Source of the DNA: Schmidtea nova | Taxonomy: Eukaryota | Direction: 5' to 3' | NCBI GenBank assembly: GCA_044892505.1 | Contig: CM097882.1 | Span: forward strand, 123,752,001 to 123,816,000 | Length of the DNA: 64,000 nt | In this document: one piece after another, positions 62,764 to 63,238 of the stretch | Position numbering within the stretch: position 1 is the stretch's first letter | Layout of the letters: the number at the start of each line of letters is the position of its first letter | The notes under the pieces: generated by a model | The model's input: only the letters and a program-made list of their open reading frames with translations | Told to the model about the DNA's origin: nothing | The model's database searches: none | Position numbers and translations under genes: made by a program

Positions 62764-63238
62764 TCATGAGTCACATGTTAGTATGAAATCATAAGTTTTA
62801 TCATAAGTTTTATCTTCTATAATTGATTTTATATCGTTAATAATATTATCAACTATATTAGCATAGTCTTTATTTTTTAATCCTAATATGACTACTTTAC
62901 CACTAGCAAAAATATTGACACATTGGATTATATTTTGTATATCTTAAAGCTGGAAATAATTCTGGTTCATAAACACATGGAATCAATTTAGATAACTCAT
63001 TTAAATTACAAATAAATCCTAAATCTGCAGTCACAGTTATCAATTGTATTGTTAAATCGTGAGACTTTACTTTTTCATCACTAATAAATTCCTTGCATCC
63101 CATTATTCTATATCTGCCTGTCTTAAAGTATATTATTGGGTATTTTCCACTTCTATCTACAATTTGCTGTGGTTTCCCAGTTGGAAATATCATGTGCGAC
63201 ACATCTGTCTTACCCTTGTAATTAATGTTTCTAATCAT
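62764..63238 (-). CDS. TATA-binding-protein-like (two TBP repeats), with one 2-nt frameshift at about 62918
   Basis: IYFKTGRYRIMGCK, TADLGFICNL..L, YEPELFPAL.Y and, after the shift, NIFASGKVVILG match TBP motifs IFxSGKxVxTGAK and YEPELFPGL; about 158 aa when corrected. Confidence 0.8.

Follow-up and report, generated by a model that had tools for sequence, protein, structure and literature searches.

A stretch of 64,000 nucleotides from Schmidtea nova (GenBank assembly GCA_044892505.1, contig CM097882.1, positions 123,752,001 to 123,816,000; here called the window) contains, close to its right end, a small TBP-like gene next to a gene for a packaging ATPase. The question raised by this locus is whether a Maverick element can encode its own promoter recognition factor and what such a factor would do for the element. 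At stake are the status of animal Mavericks as true viruses and the means by which their capsid genes would be expressed without a polymerase of their own. Maverick virions have not been seen, according to the introduction of the 2026 framework preprint.

Results

The TBP-like gene is part of a TIR-bounded element. The copy in the window is about 19.6 kb long and three other copies are about 17.6 to 18 kb, all with terminal inverted repeats (TIRs) and a 6-bp target-site duplication (TSD), and the Maverick with the TBP-like gene is present in more than 1,500 copies in the Schmidtea nova genome. The features inside the window are given in Table 1. Past its end follow, in order, the integrase, orf350, orf126, the putative major capsid gene (orf406), an adenoviral-type protease, orf133, pPolB, and the right TIR. 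The TBP-like gene has its direction in common with three accessory genes; the ATPase, orf178, integrase, orf350, orf126, orf406, protease, orf133, and pPolB genes run in the opposite direction. In Pfam, the integrase, which has a chromodomain and is split by an intron, matches rve (E 9.5e-9), and the protease matches Peptidase_C5 (E 2.5e-6). The 1330-aa pPolB ORF matches PF03175 only at E 0.05, below the cut-off, and is 56-65% identical to copies that pass this cut-off. The orf406 product aligns over 336 columns to the double-jelly-roll (DJR) protein of family B (see below) with probability 76.5 and E 2e-5; "capsid" is only a putative label because orf406 has no Pfam or PDB match. By size and position only, orf350 is a penton candidate. 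No TFIIB family was recognized by Pfam among the 12 element ORFs scanned, several of which are without assignment. The frames of orf406 and pPolB are broken in the window copy too. With TIRs, a 6-bp TSD, pPolB, an rve integrase, an A32 ATPase, and an adenoviral protease, the element is a Maverick/Polinton, and the original prediction of a Polinton-borne gene is borne out by the core genes that surround it. An AP-1/CRE-type terminus had been claimed as well and is present, in that we counted 20 AP-1-type and 4 CRE-type sites in the left TIR with the consensus sequences of these sites, but the sites are not independent because they lie within tandem repeats. Through these repeats, the element might be coupled to host stress signals, as had been suggested.

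Table 1. Features of the Maverick element inside the window (positions are those of the window)
Feature	Position	Strand	Remarks
Target-site duplication, 6 bp	58881..58886	.	matching copy at the element's other end, outside the window
Left terminal inverted repeat	58887..60340	.	tandem units; AP-1-type and CRE-type sites (see text)
Accessory ORF, hydrophobic N terminus	60602..60964	-	truncated here, 200 aa elsewhere; no ATAAAC upstream
orf166, conserved accessory gene	61030..61527	-	in-frame stop in the window copy
Acidic ORF, about 160 aa	62015..62497	-	no Pfam family; no ATAAAC upstream; activator role proposed
TBP-like gene	62764..63238	-	frameshifted here; 155 aa in most other copies
AT-rich 89-bp gap separating the start codons of the TBP-like and ATPase genes, which diverge from it	63239..63327	.	
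TATAAACA motif	63292..63299	+	candidate late promoter, with ATAAAC 35 nt ahead of the ATPase ATG
A32-type packaging ATPase, 207 aa	63328..63951	+	Pox_A32, E 8.3e-7
Second TATAAACA motif, in the last ATPase codons	63937..63944	+	34 nt before the next ATG
Basic orf175/178, start only	63972..64000	+	

Several other features of the element and its surroundings were observed. The products of orf133 and orf166, for which DEDD-exonuclease-like and SSB-like are tentative, borrowed labels, gave no match to a solved structure with their profiles. The conserved, Cys/His-rich orf133 (L034:302-700, minus strand) immediately precedes the TBP-like gene in many relatives; in relatives it has a D-x-E-like N-terminal motif; in the family of the window it is shortened by an internal deletion and this motif is lost. 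A 70-aa ORF with a Met-Gly start and a Cys-Cys motif, possibly a lipid-anchored membrane protein, extends over the 5' end of the integrase gene in a different frame (L004:15-227, minus strand; outside the window at about G000:C1:123816514), and Met-Gly-type starts upstream of the integrase are also found in six related loci. A 1.65-kb, 99% perfect inverted-repeat insertion (G000:C1:123827768-123829413), which holds a poly-AAT tract and ATAAAC sites, lies close to the right TIR of the element that starts in the window. Elsewhere in the window, the ORF list shows by eye decayed fragments of a hAT-like transposase (41389-43857), a Gypsy-like pol (46240-48368), and a Helitron-like helicase (55979-57272).

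The TBP-like gene of the window is broken. From the ATG at 63238 its frame runs over 111 codons to a stop at 62903-62905, having slipped in a short TG run (near 62914-62921); the rest of the protein, its C-terminal part, is encoded in a different frame that ends with the stop at 62764-62766. The truncated frame already matches Pfam TBP (E 1.7e-6). A slip in this TG run had been predicted, and other copies confirm it, since an exact-pattern count of the site over the genome gave 1,528 unbroken sites versus 3 in the form of the window. An uninterrupted 155-aa ORF, 98.5-100% identical to that of L004, is present in 27 of the 30 loci compared (L001-L030), and the remaining 3, the window and two others, are broken at the same place. 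The search of the species' own genome returned 16,801 candidates, and in 145 of the 150 that were scored the frame stays open for 170 or 182 codons, counted from stop to stop. The frameshift in the window may be either a rare real slip or an assembly error. The frame does continue past the slip, but the natural length is 155 aa rather than the predicted 158 aa or so, a length that the window copy owes to a short in-frame duplication near its 3' end. By sequence criteria, the TBP-like gene is real, conserved, and functional in most copies. All protein analyses were based on the natural copy L004 (P0001) and not on a repaired window gene.

The natural 155-aa protein matches Pfam TBP at E 6e-15, and all 35 significant sequence matches in the PDB are TBPs. 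The AlphaFold2 model, made with 66 relatives in the alignment, has a pLDDT of 94.6 and contains the two-repeat saddle fold of canonical TBP (PF00352). Foldseek gave a best E of 1.6e-9 and 44 matches at E<=0.001, of which those listed are all TBP-containing entries. In VIA-align, the comparison with TBP reached Z 11.9 (rmsd 2.7, 142 aligned positions over residues 1-145) and the next non-TBP fold Z 6.2, so that the predicted TBP fold stood up to structure comparison. Both saddle repeats are there as beta-sheets, as had been claimed, but only the C-terminal repeat is complete in the model; the N-terminal repeat keeps its strands, has no H1, and shows a six-residue helix at the place of H2. The span from G125 to Q158 is 17 residues in this short form versus 32 to 33 in cellular TBP. 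Among 170 family sequences, 111 have the short form and 42 a long form, and the model of one long relative (L088) retains both N-terminal helices (H19-25 and H64-78, Z 17.9). The short form is probably derived, because such relatives with both helices exist; in the tree, its nesting within the long form has weak support (86/71). The ESM Atlas gave only generic TBP clusters for one homologue.

The residues that touch DNA and TFIIB were surveyed in the same 170 sequences (135-210 aa), with the yeast TBP numbering transferred through P0087; six rows that were cellular-type or partial were kept separate, as were nine canonical references. The conservation values are partly circular, as the family was gathered by a profile of close relatives. 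Of the canonical four intercalating phenylalanines only three are kept, F116 in 167, F190 in 169, and F207 in 169 sequences; F99 is replaced by proline in 160 of 170, in a register that is alignment-based, and in the alternative register of P0001 there is no phenylalanine either. N69 is kept in 150 sequences and N159 is serine or threonine in all 170, so the central asparagine pair is not intact. Further changes on the DNA face are V71N (126), V122R (166), T124M (170), V161T/S (167), and L205N (169), and I194R is found in 131 of 170. P191 is kept as in cellular TBP, and the TFIIB-contact glutamates are kept at E186 in 155 and at E188 in 168 of 170 (91% and 99%). Of these positions, V71, F99, F116, V122, T124, N159, V161, F190, L205, and F207 are listed as TBP DNA contacts in Table 1 of PMC12529657. 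TBP kinks DNA at base pairs 1-2 and 7-8, as stated in PMC10005294, and PMC1636458 names I194, V203, and L205 as the TBPm3 positions that alter specificity at base 2, which would place the C-terminal repeat on the upstream half of the TATA box. By symmetry, the N-terminal repeat would then sit on the downstream half. According to PMC7221094, the two stirrup glutamates of TBP contact TFIIB, and the basic patch of H2 binds TFIIA, TAF1, Brf, Mot1/BTAF1, and NC2.

A short motif precedes the ATPase gene of the window and the gene behind it (Table 1). By reading, (T)ATAAAC(A) was found to be common to the regions upstream of the ATPase, orf133, and capsid genes of relatives. In a de novo count over four gene classes of relatives, ATAAAC was the top hexamer, present in 35 of 39 windows versus 3.1 in shuffled sequences; these statistics overstate independence, since attention was drawn to the motif post hoc and the loci counted are related. 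The hexamer is on the sense strand in 34 to 35 of 39 and on the antisense strand in 0 of 39, it lies 31-40 nt before the ATG at 29 of 36 sites, and it is preceded by T in 30 and followed by A in 33 of 36; the variants GTAAAC and ATAAATA-type each occur in 1 of 39. Counted within 75 nt of the ATG in non-redundant metagenome loci, the motif is present at 12/12 ATPase, 6/8 capsid, 8/10 orf133, 5/7 orf350, and 3/4 protease genes, and at 8/8 genes of orf178, which had been held out. It is rare before integrase (1/6), orf126 (1/6), orf166 (3/16), pPolB (0/2), and the TBP-like genes themselves (2/40), and the background is 236 of 4,478 windows. Copy c15 has the motif less than 70 nt upstream of seven genes of the ATPase block and shows none upstream of its four opposite-strand genes or of pPolB; the protease of the window's family also has no motif upstream. 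"Late" is a label by gene content only, because the motif also precedes orf133 and 23 of 79 unlabelled ORFs of relatives.

Codon usage gives a separate view of the motif. Where it falls in an upstream coding sequence, Ile-Asn is spelled ATAAAC at 17 of 20 motif sites versus 29 of 208 elsewhere, and a second synonymous-codon comparison, at the motif inside the previous gene, gave 19/19 versus 24/42. As far as sequence comparison goes, the motif is specific in strand and position and is under a DNA-level constraint. The regions upstream of the relatives' TBP-like genes look different, with canonical TATA in 19, Inr-like elements in 31, and CCAAT in 13 of 36, scored with the consensus patterns of these elements; no canonical TATA was seen upstream of the TBP-like gene in the window's family. 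A recognition factor of its own for late promoters had been proposed for the element, and this proposal is supported and now has a candidate target, TATAAAC. Set in the TATA register, the motif has its C at position 7, which falls in the half that the rewired N-terminal repeat would read.

The same motif is found before some accessory genes of related elements, namely, before secreted-looking, leucine-rich-repeat-like or Cys-rich proteins (L068, L072, L079, L082). By eye, other accessory genes of related elements resemble a ubiquitin-conjugating enzyme (L046:222-719), a dual-specificity phosphatase (L047:4008-4319), and a RING protein (L080:1710-2171), and L046 has two tandem penton-candidate genes.

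The original prediction also took the head-to-head genes, with about 90 bp between their start codons, to share a bidirectional promoter. The distance is correct (89 bp), but the promoter does not hold as a general feature. Both genes are present in 15 related loci; they share a strand in 13 of these and are divergent, with other genes between, in the remaining 2, so that direct head-to-head order is found in 0 of 15, and the motif inside the gap of the window points to the ATPase only. We reject a conserved bidirectional promoter on the basis of these layouts.

Family B, a second Polinton family in the same genome that was found with PF21738, served as one contrast. Its pPolB is 27-28% identical to that of the first family, and its loci are L228-L245 (e.g., G000:C3:29273848-29289487). 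Inside three TIR-bounded family-B elements there was no TBP-like match, and two TBP-like matches near family-B elements belong to adjacent elements of the first family. The ATAAAC motif precedes 0 of 30 family-B gene starts in six loci, at a similar overall density of ATAAAC. Three IMG/VR contigs with a distant ATPase are the other contrast: the TBP-like gene is absent from them, and ATAAAC is found at 4 of 32 ORFs, none at 31-47 nt. The co-occurrence of gene and motif is thus seen against two distant contrasts, family B and three related partial contigs, with no close TBP-less relative among them. The two Polinton families in one genome use different upstream signals. Start codons of family B are mostly in A/T-rich TAAAATG-type contexts, which recall the poxvirus late signal TAAATG, and by this likeness family B may be transcribed by a helper virus.

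A homologue search with the protein gave 82 relatives of about 150 aa among 94 matches. A profile search gave 58 representatives at E<=1e-30; at 1e-10 there were 782, with cellular TBPs among them. A Polinton core gene is present in 22 of 56 metagenome loci and at least one gene of the element in 39, so that the TBP-like gene is linked to Polinton genes in other lineages too; in 17, all under 3.2 kb, the TBP-like gene is the only one. Scans of IMG/VR for the TBP-like protein, capsid, and ATPase returned nothing except the three distant ATPase contigs. Between natural TBP-like copies, dN/dS is 0.13-0.32 (0.09 for the ATPase), values that show purifying selection on the TBP-like gene in terms of codon substitution. 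In a tree of 63 rows, 47 family rows split at 100/99 from 16 cellular rows, which include four host TBP-family loci. The family rows were sampled from 156 plus two loci, and a scan for giant-virus TBPs gave one weak match, in no listed ORF. The tree reads only as "not a recent host capture," because its branches are long and its rows cover the family and cellular TBPs, with none from giant viruses.

The host itself has an intron-bearing TBP, a TBP paralogue in two nearby loci, and two divergent TRF-like genes (L099-L103), as well as TFIIB with a paralogue and a BRF1-like gene (L222, L224, L225). The best named relatives of the host TFIIB are from Schistosoma and cestodes.

Discussion

We think it likely that the TBP-like protein is a late-promoter factor encoded by the element, with predicted binding to TATAAAC and acting through host TFIIB and Pol II. 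The gene would be expressed early from host-type promoters. Its product would bind TATAAAC, with the rewired N-terminal repeat (V71N, F99P, V122R, T124M) accommodating the C at position 7, and the kept C-terminal stirrup (E186/E188) would engage host TFIIB and so bring Pol II. Loss of the basic patch of H2 would free the protein from control by Mot1/BTAF1, NC2, TAF1, and TFIIA. Taken together, these steps would let a single 155-aa protein switch the element from early to late genes. The element in the window, with its own TBP-like copy broken, would depend on protein from other copies.

An unlikely alternative, of which the decoy form had been named in the original prediction, is that the protein is a decoy or repressor: host TBP or a paralogue would read TATAAAC, and the element protein would occupy the box or sequester TFIIB, by which late genes are delayed or host transcription is dampened. 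The C(-25) variant of the adenovirus promoter is presumably TATAAACG. As wild-type TBP was crystallized on this variant, to go by the title of PDB entry 1qn3, host TBP could use a TATAAAC box; the host also has several TBP-family genes, two of them divergent, and the combination of retained TFIIB glutamates and missing N-lobe helices would suit a sponge no less than an activator. However, new invariant residues on the DNA face, such as V122R, T124M, and L205N, would be superfluous in a plain decoy, and a box read by the host is expected to drift to canonical TATA, as it has before the TBP-like genes, whereas here the C at position 7 is fixed. It also counts against a decoy that family B, in the same host, is without both the gene and the motif. 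The forkhead consensus is RTAAAYA, and ATAAACA fits it, so the motif might be a host forkhead site, unrelated to a TBP-like protein that has another job. We regard this as highly improbable, since the motif keeps a single orientation and the GTAAAC and ATAAATA-type variants are nearly absent, and a core promoter fits better with a motif that keeps its distance from the ATG and mostly begins with T at position 1.

A role in replication, either by bending the terminal origin for protein-primed synthesis or by binding single-stranded DNA, is suggested by the neighbourhood of the gene, which adjoins orf166 in 18 and orf133 in 15 of 56 related loci, and by the Giardia TBP, which lacks phenylalanines and binds single-stranded DNA according to PMC12209930. 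It appears very unlikely to us, as three of the four intercalating phenylalanines and both TFIIB glutamates are kept in the element protein, the terminal repeats of copy c15 have no inward-facing ATAAAC, and the promoter motif would be left unexplained. That the gene is a recently captured host TBP/TRF pseudogene fragment, which would have gone against the original prediction, or inert cargo would agree with the frameshift in the window copy, but this idea is practically negligible given the 1,528 unbroken against 3 broken sites, the low dN/dS, the split of the family from cellular TBPs including the host loci, and the linkage to Polinton genes in other lineages. The late-promoter factor is the reading that we follow below.

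A factor and promoter pair of this kind would provide a motif for mapping transcription starts, a single gene for knock-down, and a marker that sorts Maverick lineages by their mode of transcription. For TBP biology, the protein would be a natural minimal saddle with likely changed specificity, and with its box a candidate orthogonal TBP/TATA pair. We lean, with some reserve, towards the wider claim that a widespread clade of animal Mavericks has a self-contained early-to-late switch, operated by one TBP of about 150 aa that reads TATAAAC, is without the cell-regulated surface, and uses host TFIIB. If true, this would be the smallest known TBP, and it would be evidence that Maverick "transposons" are in fact nuclear viruses, autonomous and independent of a helper virus.

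Compared with animal Mavericks/Polintons (adintoviruses), the element has in common the TIRs, the 6-bp TSD, pPolB, an rve integrase with a chromodomain, the A32 ATPase, the protease, and a putative capsid, and it differs from other Mavericks in carrying the TBP-like gene and a dedicated upstream motif. TBP and TATA terms are absent from the main text of a nematode survey (PMC10748475) and of the 2026 PLV framework preprint. Starrett 2021 (PMC8502044; preprint 10.1101/697771) has in the legend of Fig. 5, without comment there, the gene label "TBP" for a MELD virus with an adintovirus-like PolB. This one legend entry, which gives no helix loss and no motif, may or may not refer to the same family, and the supplement gave 0 matches for a TBP gene. 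Outside most subscription papers, Repbase, and bioRxiv supplements, we found no account of the family or the motif.

Compared with cellular TBP (yeast 1ytb, Arabidopsis 1qn3, archaeal 2z8u/1mp9), the protein has the saddle fold over residues 1-145, F116, F190, F207, N69, P191, and E186/E188 in common, at 23-29% identity in structure alignments. Cellular TBP differs in having the N-terminal H1 and H2 and F99, and the element protein is polar or charged at V71, V122, N159, V161, I194, and L205. As modelled, it has the TBP fold, yet it departs from canonical TBP in three defining features. The best viral fold match is the TBP of Heterosigma akashiwo virus (E 4.8e-8, 17% identity). According to PMC7221094, the TBPs of Nucleocytoviricota and mirusviruses are likewise without the eukaryotic regulatory signature of the N-lobe, but they keep the first TFIIB glutamate in only about 40%, and almost all of these viruses, poxviruses excepted, have a TFIIB of their own; the element protein keeps both glutamates nearly throughout, and no TFIIB-family ORF was recognized beside it.

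The closest functional likeness is with the herpesvirus TBP mimics. As described in PMC12529657, KSHV ORF24, EBV BcRF1, and HCMV UL87 share with the element protein a polar DNA face and a variant TATA box (TATT) before late genes, and ORF24 is remodelled at TBP DNA-contact positions and is polar at V122, T124, V161, and L205. A variant box before structural genes is likewise seen here, ATAAAC being found in 35 of 39 upstream windows against 2 of 40 for the TBP-like genes and 0 of 30 for family B. The same source describes ORF24 as a 752-aa protein with all four phenylalanines and no TFIIB glutamates, which makes direct contact with Pol II and works only together with five further viral proteins. 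In contrast, the element protein is a single domain of 155 aa, with no Pol II-binding N-terminal domain or CTD, and no partner module was recognized in the element; structural matches to herpesvirus proteins are weak (E 4e-3 to 5e-3). Provided that the protein reads the motif, the element's system would work like ORF24 and TATT but is no member of that system. Viral TBP mimicry is known; what is new here is its Maverick form with a candidate cognate promoter, which, if true, would add a third viral solution to the two represented by herpesvirus ORF24 and by the TBP/TFIIB pairs of giant viruses.
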